Source: an uncultured Clostridia bacterium
GTDB taxonomy: Bacteria; Bacillota; Clostridia; TANB77; CAG-465
Direction of reading: 5' to 3'
Assembly: GCA_944388585.1 (NCBI GenBank)
Contig: CALXJI010000003.1
Coordinates: 79,360 to 143,359 of the forward strand
Length of the DNA stretch: 64,000 nucleotides
The position numbers were made by a program, and so were the translations under genes. This document shows positions 10,218 through 23,230 of the stretch, piece after piece. Below the pieces are notes generated by a model. The model was given only the letters and a program-made list of their open reading frames with translations. It was not told where the DNA came from and searched no databases. The stretch's first letter is position 1. Each line of letters starts with the position of its first letter.

Positions 10218-12389
10218 ATGAAATATTTAAAATACTTTTTAAAAAAATTAAAAAATTTTCTATTAAATTTACTACTTTTATTTTTATTCTTTTCCCCATT
10301 TGTAGTATTTTTTTCTTTTATGTTAATGGCAATAGTAAGTGAAGCGATAGATAATGGTGATCTTAATTTAAATCCAAATGATTATTGTAATTTAACAGAT
10401 GTTAACTATACTGCTGTACTATATGATGATCCTGATGGAAGTGCTAGTGTTGAAATTACTGAATATCTAACATTTGATGTTCACGCAGATTCACCATCTA
10501 ATACATATAAAGAATTATGGAGGGAACTTCCTGAAGATTATGTTGATGGTCTAAGAATAACCTATGACGTTGAATCAGTATCACAAATTTTAGATAACGG
10601 TCAAGAAATACCTTATACTGAGACTGATGAAATGTATTGGGAAGATTATGACTATACAGAAAGCTCTACTATGTATTGGCACCATAGTGATGGCTCAGGA
10701 ACATATCCTGATAATGATGAATCGTTATTAATATATATTCCTTGGACATACAGAGATAAATTAACATTTAAAATTGTATATTCAATGAATAATGCATCAT
10801 TAAGGTATAAAGATTGCTCTGAATTATATTTATCTATGTATTCTGGAAATACTATTACAAAACTAAATTCTTATAAAGCTCAAATTCTTATACCAAATGA
10901 AATAATGCCTTCTACATACTATGCATATACATTTGGTACATCTAATAGTAGATTGCCTTACAGTGAATCTGACACTATAAATCCTGGATATCACACATTC
11001 TCAATTGATTTAGATAAGTCAGATTTAAAATTTGATCGTTACAGTGAATATTTAGAATTTTGTTTACTTGCTTATGGTGATGACAAACGTATCTTTACGC
11101 AAAATGCTCCTACTAATATGTATTCTGGTCAAAATGTTTTAGATGAATGTATTGCAGAAAATGAGTACTATGAGACTAGAAATGAAAGATATAAAACATA
11201 TAAGATAGTATTACTTGTAATTTCTATACTTGGATCTGGTATACTTGTTATTAGCGGTATAAGAAAGTACAAAAAAATGAAAGAAAAATACACTTTTTAT
11301 GAGCCAGAAATAGACTTTGACTACTTTAGAGAAATACCAAGTGATTTAGATCCAATTTTTGCATCAGAATTAGTTTTTATGAAAGATCCTTTTGATGAAA
11401 ACAAAGAAAAAAAAGAAGAATATGCGGCAATTTTACTTAGTTTAGTAAGGAAGAACTATATTAAATTAACTAAACTAGATGCAAATAAAGACTGGACAAA
11501 TTCTAATACCGTAATATCTTTAGAGCCTATACGCACTGAATCTTTTATTCCTACTTTTAATGACTCTCCAGATTATTCACCAGAGCCTATTTATACCTCT
11601 ATAAATGAAAATACTGGAGAAAAAGTAGAAGCACTTACAACATCTGAAAGACTTTACTTAGAACTATTAGAAAGACATTCTAAGACTAAAAATAATTCAA
11701 TTACAATAAGTCAATTACAAGAATGTATAAATTCAGACTATGAATATACAAATTCATTTATAAAAGATATTGAAAAGAAACCAGTTCTGGAAAATGGTGT
11801 AATTAAAGGATACTTTCAGACTGCAGAATATGATAAACCAAAAAAAGAGCTTGAAAAAATGGCAAAATCAAGTTTACGCTTAGGATTGTTTTTACTAGTT
11901 GTTGTAAATTGTATTTCGTATTTTACACCTTTAGCTTTATGCTTCGGAGCTTATACTATTTTAGGTGTTGCTTGCTTATGGAAATATTTTTACCTAAATA
12001 TAAAATCAAGTAATTTACTTTTACTTACACAATTTGGTGCTAATGAACAAGCAAAGTGGTATGGTCTATATAACTTCTTAAAAAGTGATACATTAATCAA
12101 AGAAAGAGAAATTCATGAATTACCTTTATGGGAAAAATACTTAATTTATGCAACTGCCTTTGGTATTTCAGAAAAAGTTATTAAAGCCATAAAAATAAAT
12201 GCAGTAGAGTTAAATATTGATAATAGTCCAATATTAAATCACAATTTTTATATTCACTCACACAACTTTCATAGAACTTCCAGAGCTTTAGGTCGTTCAA
12301 TTCATACTTTTTCAAGAGGTGGTGGATTTAGAGGTCATGGTTATGGAGGCGGTGGCCGCGGAGGTGGCGGCGGTGGCGGTGGCCATTAA
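10218..12389 (+). CDS. DUF2207-like membrane protein with C-terminal glycine-rich tail
   Basis: Signal/TM N-terminus, large extracytoplasmic domain, central TM helices, C-terminal GGGFRGHGYGGGGRGGGGGGGGH tail as in DUF2207 proteins; true start may be an internal Met. Confidence 0.5.
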   Translation: MKYLKYFLKKLKNFLLNLLLLFLFFSPFVVFFSFMLMAIVSEAIDNGDLNLNPNDYCNLTDVNYTAVLYDDPDGSASVEITEYLTFDVHADSPSNTYKELWRELPEDYVDGLRITYDVESVSQILDNGQEIPYTETDEMYWEDYDYTESSTMYWHHSDGSGTYPDNDESLLIYIPWTYRDKLTFKIVYSMNNASLRYKDCSELYLSMYSGNTITKLNSYKAQILIPNEIMPSTYYAYTFGTSNSRLPYSESDTINPGYHTFSIDLDKSDLKFDRYSEYLEFCLLAYGDDKRIFTQNAPTNMYSGQNVLDECIAENEYYETRNERYKTYKIVLLVISILGSGILVISGIRKYKKMKEKYTFYEPEIDFDYFREIPSDLDPIFASELVFMKDPFDENKEKKEEYAAILLSLVRKNYIKLTKLDANKDWTNSNTVISLEPIRTESFIPTFNDSPDYSPEPIYTSINENTGEKVEALTTSERLYLELLERHSKTKNNSITISQLQECINSDYEYTNSFIKDIEKKPVLENGVIKGYFQTAEYDKPKKELEKMAKSSLRLGLFLLVVVNCISYFTPLALCFGAYTILGVACLWKYFYLNIKSSNLLLLTQFGANEQAKWYGLYNFLKSDTLIKEREIHELPLWEKYLIYATAFGISEKVIKAIKINAVELNIDNSPILNHNFYIHSHNFHRTSRALGRSIHTFSRGGGFRGHGYGGGGRGGGGGGGGH

Positions 12390-12408
12390 TATAATCTAAA
12401 GTCAAACA

Positions 12409-12450
12409 AAAAAGAGTATTAATGAAGAAACTTCATTATATACTCTTTTT
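12409..12450. terminator. long bidirectional hairpin terminator between convergent genes
   Basis: AAAAAGAGTATTAATGAAG-aaa-CTTCATTATATACTCTTTTT, flanked by T runs on both strands. Confidence 0.7.
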
Positions 12451-13910
12451 TATTTTAATAATACATCTTCCAATTTCAGTGAATCTAATTTTATATTAAG
12501 ACTACTCTCTATTTTCTTTTTACTTATTGTTTTGTAAATTGTTTTTGAAATATATTTTTCTGCAAAACTAATTATTTCTTTATAATCATCAATATCATCA
12601 GGAAAATATATTCCGCCTTTATCCTTGTGCTTTATCATCCAACAAGTAGCAGATAAAGCTGACATGGATACAGGAGTTATTGTTGGTGTTTGCCAAAAAG
12701 AGGATTTTTTATCCTTATATAAAAAACTTTTCTTTATCCTATTTCCTACCCATACTGGTCTAAATTTATTTCCCAATAACAATACTCCTACATACTCTGT
12801 ACCATGCTTTATATTTTCCTTATAAATAATTTCAGCTCTTTCAGGATATTTATATCCTCTTATAATTGAGACATTATCATCTTGAGGCTTATTTATATCT
12901 GTATGTAAATAATCATTTACTTTAGCTTCTTTTAAATATTTTATTGCAAAATCACAAGGAGAATATAAAAATATAACTGTTGGTCTATATATAACTTTAT
13001 CTTCTTTTTTTACTTCAAGAGATTTAGCAATAGTAATTGTCTCTTCGTGCGGTACTAAAAAACCTTCAAAATATCCATTTGGATAATATGTTTTTCCCAC
13101 TTTATTAATTGCAATATCTTTAAATTCTAAAAAGCCATTTTTAAAATCTATTTTTTTAATTTCTTCCTTATCATTTATTATTTCATCAGTTCCAATATTT
13201 GCGGTTGCTTCACTCAACATTTCGAAAAAAAATGAATCAACTGACCATGTACTATATAACTTATCCTTTTCAAACTTATCTTTAACCTCTTGATAATCGT
13301 TATCATTTACATGAATTTCCTTTAAATCAAGTTCTCTGGCAAGCTCATTAAATTTATGTTCCTTCAATAACATATTATATTTTTGATTATTCTTAAATTG
13401 ATTTTTTACAATATATTCAAGTCCTGCTTTTACAAAATGAGAAACTAATCCAGGATTATTTCCATGATGGATTACAATTGGATATTTATTTACATTATTT
13501 TCTTTCCTTAATAAATTACGTAATTCATTTTTCTTTATATTTTCCTCAAAAATATTATACCAATTATCGCTCCAATCTGTTTCTCCTGTATTTAAATACA
13601 TTACATTTTTGTTGGCACACCATTCTATAAAATCTCTTGTACCAACACTATCTGCAAAATCGATCAGCAAATCTCCTTCACTCAAATATTTACTAAATAT
13701 ATTTTTAAAATTTTCTCTATTAATCTCAGCTACAATAAAATTTCCAATATTTCCTCCCATTTCAAGAAAAAAAGCATATTCAAGTTTATCCATAGAAATA
13801 ACATAATATTTTTCTTTATCAAACTTTATTTCTTTAGATACTTTTTCAAAAAAACTCTTTCCTACTGCTCCAAACCCAAATTGTACTATTCTATTATTAA
13901 ATTCAATCAT
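12450..13910 (-). CDS. homospermidine synthase-like NAD-dependent enzyme (saccharopine-dehydrogenase fold)
   Basis: 486 aa; N-terminal Rossmann motif RIVQFGFGAVGKSF parallels bacterial HSS (IVMIGFGSIGRG); length matches bacterial HSS. Confidence 0.5.
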   Translation of the reverse strand: MIEFNNRIVQFGFGAVGKSFFEKVSKEIKFDKEKYYVISMDKLEYAFFLEMGGNIGNFIVAEINRENFKNIFSKYLSEGDLLIDFADSVGTRDFIEWCANKNVMYLNTGETDWSDNWYNIFEENIKKNELRNLLRKENNVNKYPIVIHHGNNPGLVSHFVKAGLEYIVKNQFKNNQKYNMLLKEHKFNELARELDLKEIHVNDNDYQEVKDKFEKDKLYSTWSVDSFFFEMLSEATANIGTDEIINDKEEIKKIDFKNGFLEFKDIAINKVGKTYYPNGYFEGFLVPHEETITIAKSLEVKKEDKVIYRPTVIFLYSPCDFAIKYLKEAKVNDYLHTDINKPQDDNVSIIRGYKYPERAEIIYKENIKHGTEYVGVLLLGNKFRPVWVGNRIKKSFLYKDKKSSFWQTPTITPVSMSALSATCWMIKHKDKGGIYFPDDIDDYKEIISFAEKYISKTIYKTISKKKIESSLNIKLDSLKLEDVLLK

Positions 13911-13913
13911 TAT

Positions 13914-14576
13914 TTATATCTCTTCCTTTTCAAATTTTTCTTTTATTGTTTTCTTTAAAATAATTCTTTTAGGACATGCATATCCATCTGTTATATAAAT
14001 TTCAATTCCCTTACTTTGAAAATTTAATAAAATCTTTTTTATATCCTGGTTAATAGTATCACCTATAACTATTATTTTATCTATATTATTTTGTTTGAAA
14101 TATTCAGCAGACGGAACATCTTGTTTATATAAGTCCCAACTATTATCAAAAATTGATTCTTTTGATCTATATCTATTTATTCTGTAACTATCTAATAAAA
14201 AAGCTGGATTTGCATCGTTTTTTAGATTAATATTTTTTAGTATTTCACTACCATTTATTAGACAACTTTCTATTAAATAAGTGTTATTAGTAGCAATACA
14301 TCCTTGTTGTTCATCAGTGCCATTAAAAACGGGGATTGGTCTATATCCTAAATAAGATAAAGCAATTCCAAACTCTATACTCTCTTTACCAGGTAAATCC
14401 ACAAATATAGCACTATCTTGTTGATATTTCTTTATAAACACTATTTTTCTATCACACCAATCACTAATAGGTTTTCTATTATAAATATCAATTGCAACAA
14501 ATGGTACTGGTCTTACCCAATCTATCCACTTTGCTCCATTAGGTGCATATATTTTAAAAATATCTTTTCCGTTCAT
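13914..14576 (-). CDS. hypothetical protein (220 aa), translationally coupled between ATP-grasp and HSS-like genes
   Basis: No recognisable motif; several conserved-looking Cys (DWCDRK, QQGCIATNN, GYACPK); 3-4 nt intergenic gaps on both sides. Confidence 0.3.
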   Translation of the reverse strand: MNGKDIFKIYAPNGAKWIDWVRPVPFVAIDIYNRKPISDWCDRKIVFIKKYQQDSAIFVDLPGKESIEFGIALSYLGYRPIPVFNGTDEQQGCIATNNTYLIESCLINGSEILKNINLKNDANPAFLLDSYRINRYRSKESIFDNSWDLYKQDVPSAEYFKQNNIDKIIVIGDTINQDIKKILLNFQSKGIEIYITDGYACPKRIILKKTIKEKFEKEEI

Positions 14577-14587
14577 ATTATCATCCT

Positions 14588-15793
14588 CTATTTTTCAATT
14601 AAAACTGGTATATCTTCTGCATAAGAATCAATTCTTGGATATTGACTCATTCGTGCATAATATCCAGCGTGCTCTCCCTCTATTGTGTAAGAACCAATAC
14701 ATATATGATATTGTTTACCGTCTTCAGTTTTTAAAGGATTACTTTCAAATTTTTTCTGCATCAAATATTGTTTTGGATGTTTTTTTACATCTTTTAATAT
14801 TTTCTCATATTCATCATCTTTACAAGCTTCTTTTATTGAAATTTTTTCTCCTACTCTACCATAAACTGGTTTATATATGTATCCATCTTTTAATGTCGTA
14901 TTTTTTACTTCAAATGTTTCTGGTAATAAGCTTCTCCAAGTTTTCATATCAATACCAGCTTTTTCCAAATCATCCCAAACAAACGGAAATCTTTTACTTT
15001 GAGCATATATACTAATAGGATGATTGCAAGATTTTGTTAAACTACTAAAATATCCATCCCATCTACGTGGATTCATTTGTATAAGCCATTCTAGAGGAGT
15101 AAACCTAAAAATTAAATCTATACTTGTCTGGTTATTTTCTAATATACAATATGCTTTTTTATTTTTAAAATTAATATGATCTGCTGCACCATATATAATA
15201 TTATATCCTTCTTTTTTCAACCTATCTCCCATATATTGCATAACTTGTCTATCGTCACTAAAACATGTACAATGTATCATCATAATTGTACCTTTTTTAT
15301 TTAATTTTTTATTGATAACCTCTACCATTCTTTCACCAAATGAATTATATTCTAAATTAGGAATATCAATAAATTCACGTGCTACATTAGGTAATAATGA
15401 ACTTTCCGCAAAACCTCCAGGGCAATCACTATTTACTTCAGTTACAACCCAATTTCCATTTATACTCGGATGAAAATCATATCTCATAAGTCTAATATTT
15501 TGAGTTTTATCATAATTTTGCATGCTAGGAATTTGCTCTAAAATTTTCTTAGGAAGTGATAGTTTTTTTGCAATTTTTATATTTTTGTTTAAATATTCTT
15601 CTGCTATTATAGTTTCTTTATCCAAGTTTTGAGTTAATTTTACTAACTCCTCATTTTCCTCTTTACTCAATATTAAAACATATTTAGACAAAGTATTATT
15701 ATCACAAAATTGTGGATCCCATTTATAACAATCAAACATTGCTTGAATTTTATAATCGTAATACCTATCTTCAGGAATTTTTATTAATTTCAT
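14588..15793 (-). CDS. circularly permuted ATP-grasp enzyme, glutathionylspermidine-synthetase (GspS/YgiC)-like
   Basis: 401 aa; Mg-site motif VTEVNSDCPGGF (E.N..PG) lies N-terminal to the lysine loop YKPVYGRVGEKISI, the reversed order that marks GspS-type permuted ATP-grasp folds. Confidence 0.5.
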   Translation of the reverse strand: MKLIKIPEDRYYDYKIQAMFDCYKWDPQFCDNNTLSKYVLILSKEENEELVKLTQNLDKETIIAEEYLNKNIKIAKKLSLPKKILEQIPSMQNYDKTQNIRLMRYDFHPSINGNWVVTEVNSDCPGGFAESSLLPNVAREFIDIPNLEYNSFGERMVEVINKKLNKKGTIMMIHCTCFSDDRQVMQYMGDRLKKEGYNIIYGAADHINFKNKKAYCILENNQTSIDLIFRFTPLEWLIQMNPRRWDGYFSSLTKSCNHPISIYAQSKRFPFVWDDLEKAGIDMKTWRSLLPETFEVKNTTLKDGYIYKPVYGRVGEKISIKEACKDDEYEKILKDVKKHPKQYLMQKKFESNPLKTEDGKQYHICIGSYTIEGEHAGYYARMSQYPRIDSYAEDIPVLIEK

Positions 15794-15826: not shown

Positions 15827-16297
15827 TTAATATATTATCCCATTATTTTCTTTATATTTTTCAAAAAGCTTACTACATTCTTCATGATCTATTTGCGTTA
15901 AATTAATATCTAATGAATTTTTACCCTTAAGATAATTATATAATGCATCATCTCTAAATCCTATTTTAGCAGCATCTTTTCTTGTTGCACCATAATATAC
16001 TTTTTTTATATTTGCCCATACAATAGCACAAAAACACATAGGACATGGTTCACAACTTGTATATAAAATATATCCAGATAAATCATATGTATTTAATTTT
16101 TTACATGCATTTCTTATAGCTTGAATTTCTGCATGTGCAGTAGGATCATTATTTTTAAGCACTTGATTATTTCCTGTAGATATTACTTCTCCATCTTTAT
16201 CTACAATAACTGCACCGAAAGGTCCTCCTTCATTGTTTATAATTCCTTCTTTTGCATTTTCATTTGCTATTTCCATATATTTATTCATACTATACAT
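15827..16297 (-). CDS. guaD: guanine deaminase (CDA fold)
   Basis: 156 aa; GGPFGAVIV..NDPTAHAEIQAIRNACKKL..ILYTSCEPCPMCFCAIVWA nearly collinear with B. subtilis GuaD (156 aa). Confidence 0.7.
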   Translation of the reverse strand: MYSMNKYMEIANENAKEGIINNEGGPFGAVIVDKDGEVISTGNNQVLKNNDPTAHAEIQAIRNACKKLNTYDLSGYILYTSCEPCPMCFCAIVWANIKKVYYGATRKDAAKIGFRDDALYNYLKGKNSLDINLTQIDHEECSKLFEKYKENNGIIY

Positions 16298-16350
16298 CTC
16301 CTATTTTAATCAAAATTAATTTTACTTATTCTTAAACATAATAGCTATAT

Positions 16351-16986
16351 TTATTTAATATACTCATAAAAACTATTAGGTATTCCATATCTTGCAAGAT
16401 GTCCATTCTTATAATTTTCATCATCTGTAACATCTTTTATAACCCAATCATAAGATTTAAAATTATTAGCTTCTTCTTCTGATTCAAATTCTATTTCTAA
16501 ATAAGCTAGGCCTTCTAACTCTCCAGAAAATATATCAATTGCTAACAAATCATCTCCATCTAAAAATTGATATCTTGTTTTTAAAATAGTATTTCCTTCT
16601 CTCTTTTTTATCAAATTTTCATATTCTTCTTTAGTAATATTTATCTCCATCTCGTCTCTTATCATTCCATCTGATGTCATATTAGTTTTTACTGTAAAAG
16701 TGTATTCTTCTCCATTATTTATTCTTCTAACTCTTATTTCTGGAGAAAAACATATATATGTTTGCTCAATCATTGAAATTTGCGAATTAGTTAAATCATA
16801 TGGAATTTTTTCCTTATCTATTATCCATTTTCTCTCTATTTCAACAGAATCTGAAGTTATAGAATTAACTTTCTCAATATATTTTTTATCATATATAATA
16901 TTTTTTAAATAAATAGTAAATACAATAATTAAAATTACTATTAAAATAAAAATTATAATATCTAGTCCAATACTTTTTTTATTCAT
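16351..16986 (-). CDS. membrane-anchored CYTH-domain (triphosphate tunnel metalloenzyme) protein
   Basis: N-terminal TM helix, then the EIERKWII signature of CYTH domains and acidic motifs (EIEFESEEE). Confidence 0.55.
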   Translation of the reverse strand: MNKKSIGLDIIIFILIVILIIVFTIYLKNIIYDKKYIEKVNSITSDSVEIERKWIIDKEKIPYDLTNSQISMIEQTYICFSPEIRVRRINNGEEYTFTVKTNMTSDGMIRDEMEINITKEEYENLIKKREGNTILKTRYQFLDGDDLLAIDIFSGELEGLAYLEIEFESEEEANNFKSYDWVIKDVTDDENYKNGHLARYGIPNSFYEYIK

Positions 16987-16996
16987 ATTCGCTCCT

Positions 16997-17317
16997 TTAT
17001 ATAATTTTTAATGTATTTACATATTCAGAGCATAACCATAAAATTATACTAATTATAATCAATACTATTAAATAAATTTTTATTTTTCTAACTTTTTCTT
17101 CTTTATCTTTTTTGGAAGTATTCATATACCATATAGCAAATAAAATATATGCAAAAACAAGCATAAAAACAAATACTTTAATAGATCCAGATATATCTGA
17201 TATTTCCATATTATGTACTTCTTGACTTGTAAGTCCTCTAACAGCAAATATATATGTAGAATTTAAAGTTAAACTAATACTGATAAATATAAAATACATT
17301 ATTTTTCTTATTTTCAT
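16997..17317 (-). CDS. small membrane protein (2 TM)
   Basis: 106 aa with two hydrophobic helices; no known motif. Confidence 0.35.
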   Translation of the reverse strand: MKIRKIMYFIFISISLTLNSTYIFAVRGLTSQEVHNMEISDISGSIKVFVFMLVFAYILFAIWYMNTSKKDKEEKVRKIKIYLIVLIIISIILWLCSEYVNTLKII

Positions 17318-17387: not shown

Positions 17388-17426
17388 AAAAGCTATAAAG
17401 TATAATATATCATACTTTATAGCTTT
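17388..17426 (-). terminator. intrinsic terminator downstream of tRNA-Arg/tadA
   Basis: 14-bp stem AAAGCTATAAAGTA / TACTTTATAGCTTT followed on the minus strand by a T run. Confidence 0.7.
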
Positions 17427-17431
17427 AATAT

Positions 17432-17508
<77 letters not shown>

Positions 17509-17554: not shown

Positions 17555-17968
17555 TCACTTTCTTAAGTCTTTAAAAAAATCACTTAATATTTTAGAGCAT
17601 TCTTTATACTCCATATTAACTAACAATTTTTTATCATATTGTGTTGAATTATTATCTAAAGCTCCAAAATATACCTTCTCAATTCTAGCCTGTTTTATCG
17701 CTCCTAAACACATTTGACATGGATATAAAGTAACATACATTTTACATCCTTCAAGTCTCCATGCCTTTAATTTTTTACATGCTTTATTTATACATAAAAT
17801 CTCTGCATGTGCTAAAGCATTTTTTTTAGTTTCACGTAAATTATATGCTCTTGAAATTATCTTATCTTCTTTTACAATAATTGCGCCAACTGGTACTTCT
17901 TTTTTTTTATAAGCTTTTTTTGCCTCTTTAAAAGCTTCAATCATATATTTATCCACATTATCCACCAT
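17555..17968 (-). CDS. tadA: tRNA-specific adenosine deaminase TadA
   Basis: 137 aa; VPVGAIIV...HAEILCINKACKKL...PCQMCLGAI zinc-binding CDA motifs (HAE, PCxxC) at TadA spacing. Confidence 0.8.
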   Translation of the reverse strand: MVDNVDKYMIEAFKEAKKAYKKKEVPVGAIIVKEDKIISRAYNLRETKKNALAHAEILCINKACKKLKAWRLEGCKMYVTLYPCQMCLGAIKQARIEKVYFGALDNNSTQYDKKLLVNMEYKECSKILSDFFKDLRK

Positions 17969-18054: not shown

Positions 18055-18131
18055 GACTTTGTAACTCAGTTGGATAGAGTGCTTCCCTCCTAAGGAAGAA
18101 GTCGGCGGTTCAAATCCGCCCAAGGTCACCA
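18055..18131 (+). tRNA. tRNA-Arg (anticodon CCT)
   Basis: GACTTTGTAACTCAGTTGGATAGAGTGCTTCCCTCCTAAGGAAG..GGCGGTTCAAATCCGCCCAAGGTCACCA; anticodon loop CTCCTAA; T-arm GGTTCAAATCC. Confidence 0.9.
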
Positions 18132-18895: not shown

Positions 18896-21800
18896 CTACT
18901 TTTTCACTTTCATTTTTTTATTTCTAACTCTATATTTAGAAACATTTTCTTTTATCTTTAAATTATCTTTAGCAACAGTAATAAGTAGTTTTATTCTGTT
19001 TATCTGATTTGTTTGACTTGCTCCTGGATCATAATCTACAGGAGAAATATTTGCTTGTGGGAATTTTCTTCTTATTGTTTTTATAACACCTTTTCCAACA
19101 ACATGATTTGGAAGACAAGCAAAAGGTTGTACACATACTATATTTGGTATATCATTTTCTATATATTCAATCATTTCAGCTGTTAAAAACCATCCTTCAC
19201 CTGTTTGATTTCCAATAGATAATACATTTTGTACTTTTTCTTCAAGCTCCCATATATCACATGGCGGTAAATATCCTTTTTTAGATTTTGCAAGTGCTTG
19301 TTTTGCATCTTTTTCAAATCCATCTATTAAATTAATAGCTAATTTACAAATCTTTGAAGCTATCTTATCTTTTTTAAGCAGCTTATTATTTGTTATACTA
19401 TGTGTTGCCATATATTTTACAAATCCCATAAAATCTGGCATTACTACTTCTGCACCCTCATTTTCTAATACATCTATAACGTAATTATTTCCAAATGGAT
19501 GATATTTAATTAATATTTCACCTACAACACCTACTCTAGGTTTTACCTGCTTTTTATTTATTTGAATATTTTCAAAATCATCTACCATTTGGTAAATTCC
19601 TTGCTTAAATTCTTTCATATCACCATTTGCTATTATTTCTTTTCCTTTTTCAAGCCATTTATTATATACTTTTTCTGATTCTCCTTTTTTCACTTCATAT
19701 GCTCTATTTTTAAGTAGCATTTTTTGTAAAAGATCTCCATATACAACAGCTTTTATTAACTTTACTGCAAGAGATGGAGTAATTTTAAATCCACTAGATT
19801 TTTCCATTCCTTTCACATTAAATGAAATAATAGGTATATTAGAGTATCCAGCATCTTTTAATGCTTTTCTAATAAATCCAATATAGTTAGTTGCTCTACA
19901 TCCTCCACCTGTTTGTGACATTATAAGTGCTGTTTTATTTAAATCATATTTACCAGAGTCTAATGCCTCAATCATTTGGCCTGTTGTTATAATAGAAGGA
20001 TAACATGCATCATTATTTACATATTTTAGTCCTGTCTCTATTGTATGCTCTGTACACTCTCTTAAAAGCTCAACATTATACCCCTCTGCTTTCATTGCTG
20101 CAAGTAATAACTCAAAATGTATTGGTGCCATTTGTGGTACTAAAATAGTATATCCTTCTTCTTTCATTTCTTTAGTAAATTTTACTTTATCTATTTCATA
20201 ATTTCCTAAATCTTGTTCTTGATTTTCTTGTATTTTAGGATTAGCATCTTCCATTTTCTTTTGTTGCATTCTTTTATTCATACTAGCAAGTAATGATCTT
20301 ACACGTATTCTTACAGCACCTAAATTATTTATTTCGTCTATTTTTATTAATGTATACATATTATTATAACTTGTTAATATTTCTTCTACCTCGTCTGTTG
20401 TTACAGCGTCAACGCCACATCCAAATGAATTTAGTTGTATCATTTCAAGAAAATCATGTCTTCCAACATATTCAGCTGCAGCATATAATCTTGAATGATA
20501 TACCCACTGATCTACAACTCTTATTGGTCTTCTAACTTGGGCTTTATCTGATACACTATCTTCAGATAATACACAAAGTCCAAGGCTTGTTATTAATGTA
20601 TCTATACCATGGTTTATTTCTGGATCAACATGATAAGGACGTCCAGCAAGTACAATACCCCTTAAATTGTTTTCTTTTATATAATCTACAATCTCCTGAC
20701 CTTTTTTATGCACATCATCTCTAAATCTTTGATATTCATTTTCTGCCTCTTTAGCTGCTTTTAACACTTCAGATTTTTTAAAATGGTATTCTTTAAATTC
20801 AGGAAGTTCCATTACAACTTCTGTTAATCTCTTTGGATCGAAAGGTAAAAACGGATTAATATATTTTACATCTTTAAGTTCTTCTACATTATTTTTTATT
20901 ACTTCTGAATAAGACGCTACTATTGGACAATTATATGAGTTATCTGCACCTTCAAACTCTTTACGAGAATTAGAAATACATGGATAAAAAATAGTTTTTA
21001 TCCCTTTATTTATTAAGCTCATAATATGTCCATGTGCAAGCTTTGCAGGATAGCATACAGACTCAGATGGCATAGATTCCATACCTTTTTCATATGTTTT
21101 TCTATTACTCTTTTCAGAAATTATTACCCTAAATCCAAGATTAGTAAAGAAAGTAAACCAAAATGGATAATCTTCATACATATTTAAAACTCTAGGAATT
21201 CCTATTGTTCCTCTTTTAGCATCTTCTTGTGACAATGGCTTGTATGAAAATAATCTTTCATTTTTATATTTATACATATTAGGTAAATCATTTTGAACAT
21301 TTGTATTTCCAGCACCTTTTTCACATCTATTACCTGATACAAATATTTTACCATTACCAAATTTATTTATTGTTAATCTACAATTATTTTCACATTTTCC
21401 ACATCTTGCATGAGTAATTTTAATATCTAATTTATCTATCTCATCTGGTTTTAGCATAGTAGATTTATAATAATCATCCTCATTTGCTATAAATTGCTCT
21501 TTAGCAAGTAATGCTACTCCATATGCACCCATAAGTCCTGCAATATCTGGTCTTATTACATCTCTTCCTGTTATTTTTTCAAAGCTACGTAGTACTGCAT
21601 CGTTATAAAAAGTACCACCTTGAACAACTATATTTTTACCAAGCTTTCTTACATCACGTATTTTCATAACTTTTTGAATAGCATTTTTTACAACCGAATA
21701 TGAAAGCCCACTAGATATATCTCCAACAGTTGCTCCTTCTTTTTGAGCTTGTTTTATTCTAGAATTCATAAATACAGTACATCTAGATCCTAGATCCACA

Positions 21801-23230
21801 GGTGCTTGAGATTTTATAGCTTCATTTACGAATTCTTCTATGCTTACGCCTAAACTTTTAGCAAAAGTTTCAATAAATGATCCACATCCAGATGAACAAG
21901 CTTCGTTTAGCATAATATTATCTATAGCATCATTTTTTACCTTAATGTATTTCATATCTTGTCCGCCTATATCTATAATGCTACTTACCTTTGGCATAAA
22001 CTCTTTAGCTGCAGTATAATGTGCTATTGTTTCAATTTCACTAAGATCTATATTTAATGCTGTTTGTATTAGCTTTTCACCATACCCTGTAACGCCAACA
22101 TATCTTAAAATAGCTCCATCTGGAATATTTGAATATAATTTTTTAACCATGGATATTACACTTGTTAATGGATTTCCCCTATTACTTCCATAAAGCGAGT
22201 AAAGTAATGCTCCATCTTTATCTATAGCAACTAATTTTGTAGTTGTAGATCCTGCATCTATTCCTACAAATATATCTCCTTTTGTATCTTCTAGTTTTCC
22301 TCTTTTTACCTTATCTTTTTCATGACGTTTTTTAAATTCATCATATTCTTGCTCATTTTTAAATAATGGTTCTAAAGGCTTTGTCTCTGTATATTTTGCA
22401 TCTTTAAACTCTTCTAATTTTTCTTGTAGTTGTCTAGTTGTTATTTTCTCTGTATCTAAAGATGCAAGTGCTGCTCCTTTTGCAACTAGCAAATGTGCTT
22501 CATCTGGTACAATAACTTCATCATCTTTTAGTTTTAAAGTTTCAATAAACCTTTTTCTAAGTTCTGGTAAATAATTTAATGGTCCACCTAAAAAAGCAAC
22601 TTTTCCTTTAATTGGTCTACCACATGCAAGTCCACTTATTGTCTGGTTTACTACGGCCTGAAAAATAGAGGTAGCAATATCTTCTTTTCTTGCTCCTTCA
22701 TTTATTAAAGGTTGTACATCAGTTTTTGCAAACACACCACATCTTGATGCAATAGGATATATAATTTCATGTCCCTTAGATAACTCATTTAATCCTTGTG
22801 TATCAGTGTTTAGTAAAGACGCCATTTGATCTAGAAAAGCACCTGTTCCTCCTGCACATGTTCCGTTCATTCTTTGCTCTATAAATTTATCAAAATAAAT
22901 TATTTTTGCATCTTCTCCACCAAGCTCTATTACTACATCAGTTTGTGGAATATACTTTTCTACTGCTCTTTTACAAGCAATTACCTCTTGAATAAAAGGT
23001 ATACCTAAAACTTTAGATATTTCAAGTGCACCAGACCCTGTCAAAGACATAGTATAGGTACTATTTGGAAAATCTTTTATTAGTTTTTTTAGTACTTCAT
23101 ATATAGTATTTTTAGTATCTGAATGGTGTCTAGTATAACTTGTATATAAATTCTCTAATTTATCGTTCATTACTACAATTTTTACCGTTGTTGATCCAAC
23201 ATCTAGACCAACATGTAATGTTTTATTCAT
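18896..23230 (-). CDS. fused acyl-CoA dehydratase activase-like protein (two BadF/BcrA/HgdC-type ATPase domains plus a dehydratase-component-like domain)
   Basis: 1444 aa; two acetate/sugar-kinase-fold starts (LHVGLDVGSTTVKIVVM and IFVGIDAGSTTTKLVAI); Cys-rich C-terminal domain; SD GAGGTGAA before the ATG. Confidence 0.6.
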   Translation of the reverse strand: MNKTLHVGLDVGSTTVKIVVMNDKLENLYTSYTRHHSDTKNTIYEVLKKLIKDFPNSTYTMSLTGSGALEISKVLGIPFIQEVIACKRAVEKYIPQTDVVIELGGEDAKIIYFDKFIEQRMNGTCAGGTGAFLDQMASLLNTDTQGLNELSKGHEIIYPIASRCGVFAKTDVQPLINEGARKEDIATSIFQAVVNQTISGLACGRPIKGKVAFLGGPLNYLPELRKRFIETLKLKDDEVIVPDEAHLLVAKGAALASLDTEKITTRQLQEKLEEFKDAKYTETKPLEPLFKNEQEYDEFKKRHEKDKVKRGKLEDTKGDIFVGIDAGSTTTKLVAIDKDGALLYSLYGSNRGNPLTSVISMVKKLYSNIPDGAILRYVGVTGYGEKLIQTALNIDLSEIETIAHYTAAKEFMPKVSSIIDIGGQDMKYIKVKNDAIDNIMLNEACSSGCGSFIETFAKSLGVSIEEFVNEAIKSQAPVDLGSRCTVFMNSRIKQAQKEGATVGDISSGLSYSVVKNAIQKVMKIRDVRKLGKNIVVQGGTFYNDAVLRSFEKITGRDVIRPDIAGLMGAYGVALLAKEQFIANEDDYYKSTMLKPDEIDKLDIKITHARCGKCENNCRLTINKFGNGKIFVSGNRCEKGAGNTNVQNDLPNMYKYKNERLFSYKPLSQEDAKRGTIGIPRVLNMYEDYPFWFTFFTNLGFRVIISEKSNRKTYEKGMESMPSESVCYPAKLAHGHIMSLINKGIKTIFYPCISNSRKEFEGADNSYNCPIVASYSEVIKNNVEELKDVKYINPFLPFDPKRLTEVVMELPEFKEYHFKKSEVLKAAKEAENEYQRFRDDVHKKGQEIVDYIKENNLRGIVLAGRPYHVDPEINHGIDTLITSLGLCVLSEDSVSDKAQVRRPIRVVDQWVYHSRLYAAAEYVGRHDFLEMIQLNSFGCGVDAVTTDEVEEILTSYNNMYTLIKIDEINNLGAVRIRVRSLLASMNKRMQQKKMEDANPKIQENQEQDLGNYEIDKVKFTKEMKEEGYTILVPQMAPIHFELLLAAMKAEGYNVELLRECTEHTIETGLKYVNNDACYPSIITTGQMIEALDSGKYDLNKTALIMSQTGGGCRATNYIGFIRKALKDAGYSNIPIISFNVKGMEKSSGFKITPSLAVKLIKAVVYGDLLQKMLLKNRAYEVKKGESEKVYNKWLEKGKEIIANGDMKEFKQGIYQMVDDFENIQINKKQVKPRVGVVGEILIKYHPFGNNYVIDVLENEGAEVVMPDFMGFVKYMATHSITNNKLLKKDKIASKICKLAINLIDGFEKDAKQALAKSKKGYLPPCDIWELEEKVQNVLSIGNQTGEGWFLTAEMIEYIENDIPNIVCVQPFACLPNHVVGKGVIKTIRRKFPQANISPVDYDPGASQTNQINRIKLLITVAKDNLKIKENVSKYRVRNKKMKVKK

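Follow-up and report, generated by a model that had tools for sequence, protein, structure and literature searches.

What do three tightly packed genes accomplish together when they encode an ATP-grasp amide ligase, a small protein without annotated relatives, and an enzyme resembling homospermidine synthase? The question is raised by a 64,000-nucleotide (64-kb) stretch of DNA from an uncultured Clostridia bacterium (contig CALXJI010000003.1, positions 79,360 to 143,359), which was analyzed at its full length and is called the window here. The three genes lie on the minus strand of the window and were taken from the list of open reading frames (ORFs): a ligase of 401 amino acids (aa) at 14588-15793, a partner protein of 220 aa at 13914-14576, and a homospermidine synthase-like (HSS-like) protein of 486 aa at 12450-13910. 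A plus-strand gene at 10218-12389, which encodes a 723-aa membrane protein with Pfam DUF2207 and DUF2207_C matches, faces them in convergent orientation. The joint task of the three genes is probably to synthesize a polyamine and to conjugate it to a carboxyl group, with the glycine-rich tail of the DUF2207 protein as a possible target.

The ORFs spanning 12450-15793 are separated by 11 nucleotides between the ligase and the partner and by 3 nucleotides between the partner and the HSS-like gene, in agreement with a preliminary description of this DNA, which had reported three coupled minus-strand genes with gaps of 3-11 nucleotides. At both the ligase-to-partner junction (...TAGAGGATGATAATATG) and the partner-to-HSS-like junction (...AGGAAGAGATATAAATAATG), a purine run resembling a Shine-Dalgarno sequence is located inside the 3' end of the upstream gene. 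Because the ribosome-binding sites lie within the ends of the preceding genes and the gaps are short, the three-gene operon appears to be translationally coupled. Between the convergent HSS-like and DUF2207 genes, at about 12404-12455, there is a strong bidirectional intrinsic terminator hairpin with U-tracts on both strands (minimum free energy -23 and -18.8 kcal/mol, z = -6.5 and -6.3, for the two strands), and it terminates the operon and the 10218-12389 gene alike.

The 401-aa protein is assigned as a divergent, intact, circularly permuted ATP-grasp amide ligase of the GSP_synth family, in a clade of its own. Pfam GSP_synth (PF03738) matched it with 86 bits against a cut-off of 29.3, over residues 39-398 and profile positions 27-370 of 371, and PHROG 6215, annotated as 'glutathionylspermidine synthase', matched with an E-value of 2.7e-16. 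Its sole match among the PDB sequences was Escherichia coli YgiC (7uk8; phmmer E = 2.6e-3). Positions 96-190 of the Dala_Dala_lig_C (Ddl) profile align to residues 48-140, and CP_ATPgrasp_2 and the lysine loop with K308 are found at residues 285-371; the Mg-site half thus stands ahead of the lysine loop, and the ligase is circularly permuted. The earlier assignment to a permuted GspS/YgiC-like ATP-grasp is borne out by these matches, and the motifs quoted for it, TEVNSDCPGGF and the lysine-loop motif YKPVYGRVGEKISI, are present in the translation.

In an alignment with E. coli GspS, YgiC and YjfC, the ligase of phage Motura and environmental relatives, the residues that bind ATP and Mg are invariant. 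R104, D106, E119, N121, K308, R313, and R381 of the window ligase correspond to R316, D318, E330, N332, K533, R538, and R598 of GspS. The glutathione-binding residues S335, S337, and C338 of GspS are replaced by C124, G126, and G127. The identity to YgiC, YjfC, and GspS is 17-18%, and NCBIfam PRK10507 gave 37 bits against a cut-off of 882. The 401 aa align to the synthetase half of GspS alone, and an N-terminal CHAP amidase domain is absent. By these features the protein is not a glutathionylspermidine synthetase, and glutathione is probably not its acceptor.

The 220-aa protein had been described as lacking any recognizable motif, and no match to it was found in Pfam, NCBIfam, PADLOC, PHROG, or the PDB sequences, nor with tblastn against phages and plasmids. 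An exhaustive HMMER search of a library of 50%-identity representatives revealed a family of 889 clusters at E <= 0.001, with 591 at E <= 1e-10. The AlphaFold2 model, built from a 74-sequence alignment, is an alpha/beta fold with a predicted local distance difference test score (pLDDT) of 94.7 and a predicted template-modeling (TM) score of 0.91, and its comparison with PDB and BFVD by Foldseek gave nothing significant, with a best TM-score of about 0.3. Conservation in the family falls mostly on Asp, Asn, Arg, Trp, Phe, Pro, and Gly, and its motifs include DLPG, GYRPVPLYN, PPAFLLDxxR, and FDNRW..FPQDxPSA. We infer that these residues would be compatible with an acidic and aromatic ligand site. 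The family alignment includes no conserved Cys, Ser, His, or Lys, which argues against a classical amidase.

Most members of the partner family are about 250 aa long and carry a tail after the globular domain, ...GLRRNSAGGFGxxVPxPxSGG. All tailed members have G237 and G240, and nearly all have G238 and F239. The C-terminal residue is Gly in 93 of 108 tail-type representatives and in 76 of 79 complete metagenomic partner ORFs, compared with 6% of the other long ORFs at the same loci. AlphaFold2 predicted the tail with moderate confidence (pLDDT 70-79); the GGFG region forms a short beta-bridge in the model, and the last four residues are free. There are also longer forms of 400-470 aa, in which a multi-pass membrane segment precedes a tail that is rich in Gly, Tyr, and Arg and ends with GGFGG. 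The proteins P0165, P0177, P0184, and P0207 (400-473 aa) have the partner domain fused to a multi-pass membrane segment without a Pfam match, and by this segment the partner family is membrane-tethered in some lineages.

The pairing of the ligase and the partner is strict. A metagenome scan with a narrow partner sub-alignment revealed 80 soil-type loci, and a ligase homologue is encoded immediately 5' of the partner, on the same strand, in all 45 loci with enough upstream sequence. A natural ligase::partner fusion of 673 aa, P0124, was recovered from three independent assemblies (JGI, ENA, and Logan). The gene linkage and this one fusion make the 220-aa protein a dedicated partner subunit of the ligase clade. 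A gene for a DUF350 membrane protein is found immediately 5' of the ligase in 35 of 36 soil-type loci, and neither an HSS-like nor a DUF2207 gene occurs in any of the 80. The soil-type DUF350 protein (L054 4946-5743 and 34 other loci) is about 265 aa long, roughly double the 132 aa of E. coli YjfL, and two DUF350-matched stretches were reported in one soil-type example.

A contig scan of the genome collection with the single partner protein recovered close relatives of the same Clostridia clade only, the closest being metagenome-assembled genomes (MAGs) of uncultured Clostridia/Eubacteriales from gut samples. The trio is present in the same order in 12 of 14 related MAG loci, and in the other two the contigs end before the third gene. 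The neighborhood comparison proposed in the preliminary description showed that the trio is kept not only in the window clade but also in four other lineages, in which the partner is 42-52% identical and the flanks are otherwise unrelated. Tail-less-type relatives as a whole show 40-52% partner identity, GC contents of 24-44%, and unrelated flanks. The order ligase, partner, HSS-like gene, and then a convergent DUF2207 gene was observed in the window clade, L019, L103, and L111, and in L102 the contig ends after the same three genes. The ligase and the partner are followed by the convergent DUF2207 gene, with no HSS-like gene, in L104/L105, L109, and L112. A convergent DUF2207 gene was found in 7 of 7 tail-less-type lineages with enough sequence, and an HSS-like gene in 5 of 8, always at the same insertion site. 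The conserved core is the ligase with its partner, the HSS-like gene is accessory, and DUF2207 is a constant convergent neighbor; the trio itself, whose co-conservation had been proposed as a check, is not the conserved unit.

A LemA gene is located divergently 5' of the ligase-partner pair in L016-L018 and L104, and the pair of L104 sits between LemA and DUF2207. The LemA and DUF2207 families are usually neighbors, and a LemA/DUF2207 unit may have acquired the ligase pair by insertion.

The 486-aa protein was matched in PDB exclusively by homospermidine synthases (14 of 14 matches), with Legionella 2ph5 as the best over residues 2-457 (E = 3.1e-39). The preliminary description had named it HSS-like, with carboxynorspermidine or saccharopine dehydrogenase as the contrary outcome, and no such dehydrogenase chain was found among the PDB matches at E <= 0.01. 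Pfam Sacchrp_dh_NADP matched with 47.7 bits, and Sacchrp_dh_C with 29.7 bits, under its cut-off of 31. The Rossmann motif is GFGAVG (GxGxxG), and the motif quoted earlier, RIVQFGFGAVGKS, is present in the translation.

Eight residues are conserved and functional across the HSS family according to Krossa et al. 2016 (PMC4725965), who also named E117 of Blastochloris viridis HSS (BvHSS), which is outside these eight, as the 'ionic slide' residue. In the HMMER alignment of the window protein to BvHSS, N162, W229, E237, H296, and E298 are conserved as N152, W222, E230, H288, and E290, while E210, Y323, and D361 are changed to D203, F314, and E372, and E117 to T111. Six operon-linked sequences from four lineages (the window clade, L019, L103, and L111) were compared. 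None of the six departs from the catalytic Asn, Trp, and Glu-His-Glu triad, and all six carry the substitutions E210->D, Y323->F, and D361->E; at the E117 position the window clade has T, and L019, L103, and L111 have A. On this residue comparison, the enzyme has its catalytic machinery intact and its substrate pocket systematically remodelled. We infer that the enzyme retains the NAD-dependent amine-condensing chemistry, and its product is not assumed to be exactly sym-homospermidine. The altered pocket is likely to take a non-canonical donor or acceptor amine.

Which carboxylate would receive the polyamine? The preliminary description had regarded YgiC and YjfC as orphan members of the ligase family. 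They are now named peptide-spermidine ligases in RefSeq, and this activity is attributed to Pederick et al. 2023 as cited in a review (PMC11762307), which states that their physiological substrate is not known. The tails of proteins encoded beside YgiC-type ligases were compared: E. coli YgiB ends in ...TRGGFGES...SRSMGG, E. coli YjfM in ...SRGGYGRSSSARGHWGG, and the DUF1190-like protein of phage Motura in ...VRGGFGSTGSSFSAGG. In the hhalign comparison of the partner family with YgiB (DUF1190), the GGFG motif alone aligned, without significance (E = 0.16), and no homology was found between the partner family and E. coli YjfK (DUF2491). GspS is known to act on glutathione, forming the amide at the carboxylate of its C-terminal glycine. 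With GspS acting on the glycine of glutathione, and YgiC and YjfC on peptides, the simplest reading is that the Gly-terminated tails are the acyl substrates, and the analogy suggests that protein C-termini are the acceptors.

In the 64-kb window, the DUF2207 protein is the only ORF with a Gly-rich C-terminal tail (...SRGGGFRGHGYGGGGRGGGGGGGGH). The tail is predicted to be cytoplasmic from the hydropathy and the positive-inside rule, and it is conserved in distant lineages. The best candidate for the acceptor in this organism is perhaps this cytoplasmic tail of the adjacent protein.

The locus is therefore read here as a translationally coupled polyamine-conjugation operon of three components, whose acceptor would be a peptide or protein C-terminus rather than glutathione, with a probability of roughly 0.55. 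By homology, the HSS-like enzyme would use bound NAD (nicotinamide adenine dinucleotide) to oxidize a diamine, which it would then join to a second amine to give a homospermidine-type triamine. The ATP/Mg residues and the chemistry of GspS, YgiC, and YjfC indicate that the ligase would activate a carboxylate as an acyl-phosphate and amidate it with the polyamine. The most likely role of the partner would be to recognize the acceptor or to bind the polyamine. The acceptor would be a glycine-rich protein or peptide C-terminus, for which the DUF2207 tail is the best candidate here. The earlier proposal of polyamine synthesis followed by ligation to a carboxylate is consistent with all these findings, while its product, a free metabolite, is not what the comparative evidence points to. 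Its family calls for the ligase and the HSS-like enzyme were correct, and its pathway remains plausible, probably in a form re-centered on the ligase-partner pair and a protein or peptide acceptor.

Several observations weigh against this reading. The window partner is the tail-less form, without the Gly tail, and the DUF2207 tail ends in His or Ser, not Gly, in most lineages. Gly-rich tails are probably common in DUF2207 proteins generally. The DUF2207 gene is convergent with the operon and not co-transcribed with it, and YgiB and YjfM carry lipoprotein signals, which are awkward for a cytoplasmic ligase. The HSS-like gene is missing from 3 of 8 tail-less-type lineages and from all 80 soil-type loci; with so many ligase pairs standing without it, the ligase does not depend on the HSS-like enzyme. 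The partner keeps its conserved pocket where it has no tail, and thus would be more than a passive carrier. At 17-18% identity to YgiC, YjfC, and GspS, both the amine and the acid substrate of the ligase are extrapolated.

The same evidence bears on other explanations. The carboxylate could instead belong to a free acid of low molecular weight (a thiol peptide, for example, or an amino acid or other metabolite), and its ligation to the polyamine from the HSS-like enzyme would yield a soluble amide like glutathionylspermidine, with the 220-aa protein as an accessory enzyme or a regulator. GspS and trypanothione synthetase (TryS), the best-known members of the family, yield small-molecule conjugates, the window partner is tail-less, the operon includes no precursor-peptide ORF, and glutathionyl-homospermidine was suggested for hss-gss clusters by Li et al. 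2023 (PMC9992855). This is nevertheless unlikely, as the ligase is without the glutathione-binding residues, and a small-molecule product would leave unexplained both the invariant DUF2207, DUF350, and DUF1190 neighbors and the Gly-terminated tails of the partner family. Most Clostridia, moreover, are not known to make glutathione. A different order of events is conceivable as well, in which the ligase attaches a diamine (putrescine or cadaverine) first, and the HSS-like enzyme then adds an aminobutyl group to the tethered amine, much as deoxyhypusine synthase acts on a protein lysine. The consistent changes at the substrate positions (E210->D, Y323->F, D361->E, and E117->T/A) with catalysis retained would fit a changed acceptor amine. 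This order is improbable, however, given the BvHSS pocket, which is deep, gated, and suited to free diamines (PMC4725965), with no sign of an opened pocket in the HSS-like protein, and given that many lineages with the ligase pair do without the HSS-like gene.

Two further explanations concern the role of a single component. The 220-aa protein might be a hydrolase (amidase) that reverses the ligation, so that ligase and partner would correspond to the synthetase and amidase domains of E. coli GspSA. GspSA and TryS are precedents for such a pairing, and the strict association with the ligase and the occasional fusion would fit it. The top Foldseek matches of the partner model are isochorismatase-like amidohydrolases; they are weak and insignificant (TM about 0.3, E >= 0.02), and the conserved Asp, Asn, Arg, Trp, and Pro include no Cys, Ser, His, or Lys nucleophile or triad, so that an amidase is decidedly improbable. 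Least probable of all is the absence of any joint pathway, in which the HSS-like enzyme would supply bulk homospermidine and merely adjoin an unrelated ligase-partner pair using a non-polyamine amine. The absence of the HSS-like gene from 3 of 8 related lineages and from every soil-type locus could be taken that way, but the 3-nucleotide gap and the ribosome-binding site within the partner gene argue for co-translation, the insertion is kept at the same position in five lineages, and the pocket substitutions are specific to the operon-linked clade. The independent hss-DUF1190-gss cluster of phage Motura and the clusters in beta-proteobacteria also weigh against this explanation.

A protein or peptide C-terminus as the acceptor leads to a broader proposal, which is tentative and rather doubtful. 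The ligase clade, and by extension YgiC and YjfC, would polyaminate the C-termini of GGFG...G tails with spermidine or homospermidine. The tails would be carried by membrane-associated partners (the tailed 220-aa family, DUF1190, and here DUF2207), and the 220-aa domain would be the adaptor for the tail or the polyamine. If true, bacteria would have a ubiquitin-like chemistry for tagging C-termini, one that had not been recognized before and is tied to envelope function. The proposal would name the physiological substrate class of YgiC and YjfC, and would link polyamine metabolism to the covalent modification of envelope proteins in gut Clostridia, soil bacteria, and possibly E. coli. About 900 clusters of the 50%-identity library make up the unannotated sister system to which the locus belongs, and in this large system the ligase is always paired with one domain. 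The GGFG tails, the membrane-protein neighbors, and the optional polyamine synthase make the hypothesis testable by mass spectrometry.

The window is chromosomal and has a GC content of about 25%; mutS, mutL, and a sigma factor gene are also within it. Rfam matches were transfer RNAs (tRNAs) only, and a riboswitch upstream of the operon was ruled out by this search. An anti-phage defense system was ruled out as well, as PADLOC gave zero matches for the trio or the DUF2207 protein. Between a tRNA gene and the trio, on the minus strand at 15827-17317, there are genes for a 106-aa membrane protein, a protein with a transmembrane segment and a CYTH domain, and a cytidine/guanine-deaminase-like protein. 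This three-gene block was found only in the window and L001, in comparison with L010 6400-6785, and it looks like a small lineage-specific insertion beside the tRNA gene. The deaminase, CYTH, and 106-aa genes were rejected as members of the system, being absent 5' of the trio in L002-L014; in L010 and L011 the trio directly follows the tRNA with no intervening genes. The deaminase of this block (15827-16297, minus strand) is a second paralogue. It showed a weak partial match to the PADLOC model of anti-phage dCTP deaminase (E = 4.7e-11) and fell far under the cut-off of NCBIfam antiphage_deaminase, and these matches probably reflect just the shared zinc-deaminase core. Two tRNA genes, at 17435-17508 (minus strand) and 18055-18128 (plus strand), flank a tadA-like deaminase gene (17555-17968), and a 17-bp terminator-like hairpin at 17389-17426 follows the minus-strand tRNA. 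Further along, at 18896-23230 on the minus strand, is a gene for a giant protein of the coenzyme A-enzyme activase type (1444 aa), which combines two BcrAD_BadFG ATPase modules with DUF2229 and is kept with 87% identity in L010 and L011.

Among the known systems, YgiC and YjfC are comparable to the window ligase in being stand-alone GSP_synth ATP-grasp proteins with no amidase domain and with the same ATP/Mg residues, and in being encoded beside a small partner protein (YgiB or YjfM, both DUF1190, with the DUF350 protein YjfL as another neighbor). According to Ravi et al. 2024 (PMC11237479), GSP-synthetase-like ATP-grasp genes occur within PspA operons together with DUF350, DUF1190, and DUF2491. 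The soil-type relatives share the DUF350 gene with YgiC and YjfC, but have the 220-aa family in place of DUF1190. The tailed 220-aa family and the DUF1190 partners have the C-terminal RGGFG...G(G) tail in common; otherwise the 220-aa partner is a folded alpha/beta domain with no likeness to DUF1190. The window ligase differs from YgiC and YjfC in its 17-18% identity and in its loop, which reads N-S-D-C-P-G-G-F instead of N-A-D-T-P-T-S-L. The window also includes no DUF1190, DUF350, or PspA context, and has DUF2207 instead.

The gene combination itself had not been known to the preliminary description as a characterized pathway. It is indeed uncharacterized, but the clustering of hss and gss was already noted in phage Motura and beta-proteobacteria by Li et al. 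2023 (PMC9992855), who proposed 'glutathionylhomospermidine' as the product. As in the window, an HSS homologue, a small protein, and a GSP_synth ligase are encoded side by side in these clusters. The Motura ligase is of the canonical YgiC type, with 480 bits to PF03738 compared with 86 in the window. The Motura order, hss-DUF1190-gss, is reversed relative to the window, its middle gene encodes a DUF1190-like protein of 127 aa and not a member of the 220-aa family, and its HSS shows 21% identity to the window HSS-like protein.

The bacterial HSS proteins of Blastochloris viridis, Legionella (2ph5), and Pseudomonas (6y87) align to the window HSS-like protein over the full length, with GxGxxG and the catalytic Asn, Trp, and Glu-His-Glu in common. 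The operon-linked clade differs from them by the fixed substitutions E210->D, Y323->F, D361->E, and E117->T/A, and, relative to 2ph5, about 13 or more residues are inserted in the window protein around 330-360. The glutathionylspermidine and trypanothione synthetase-amidases belong to the same ATP-grasp family as the window ligase, with a presumed acyl-phosphate chemistry followed by the attack of the polyamine, whereas the window ligase is without the CHAP amidase domain and does not keep S335, S337, and C338. Within the library that was searched, nothing tied DUF2207 to GSP_synth-type ligases, and no description of the 220-aa family was found. Part of the gene combination is already in the literature; what is new here is that the ligase clade is divergent, the partner domain non-homologous, the HSS remodelled, and the membrane neighbor a different one.

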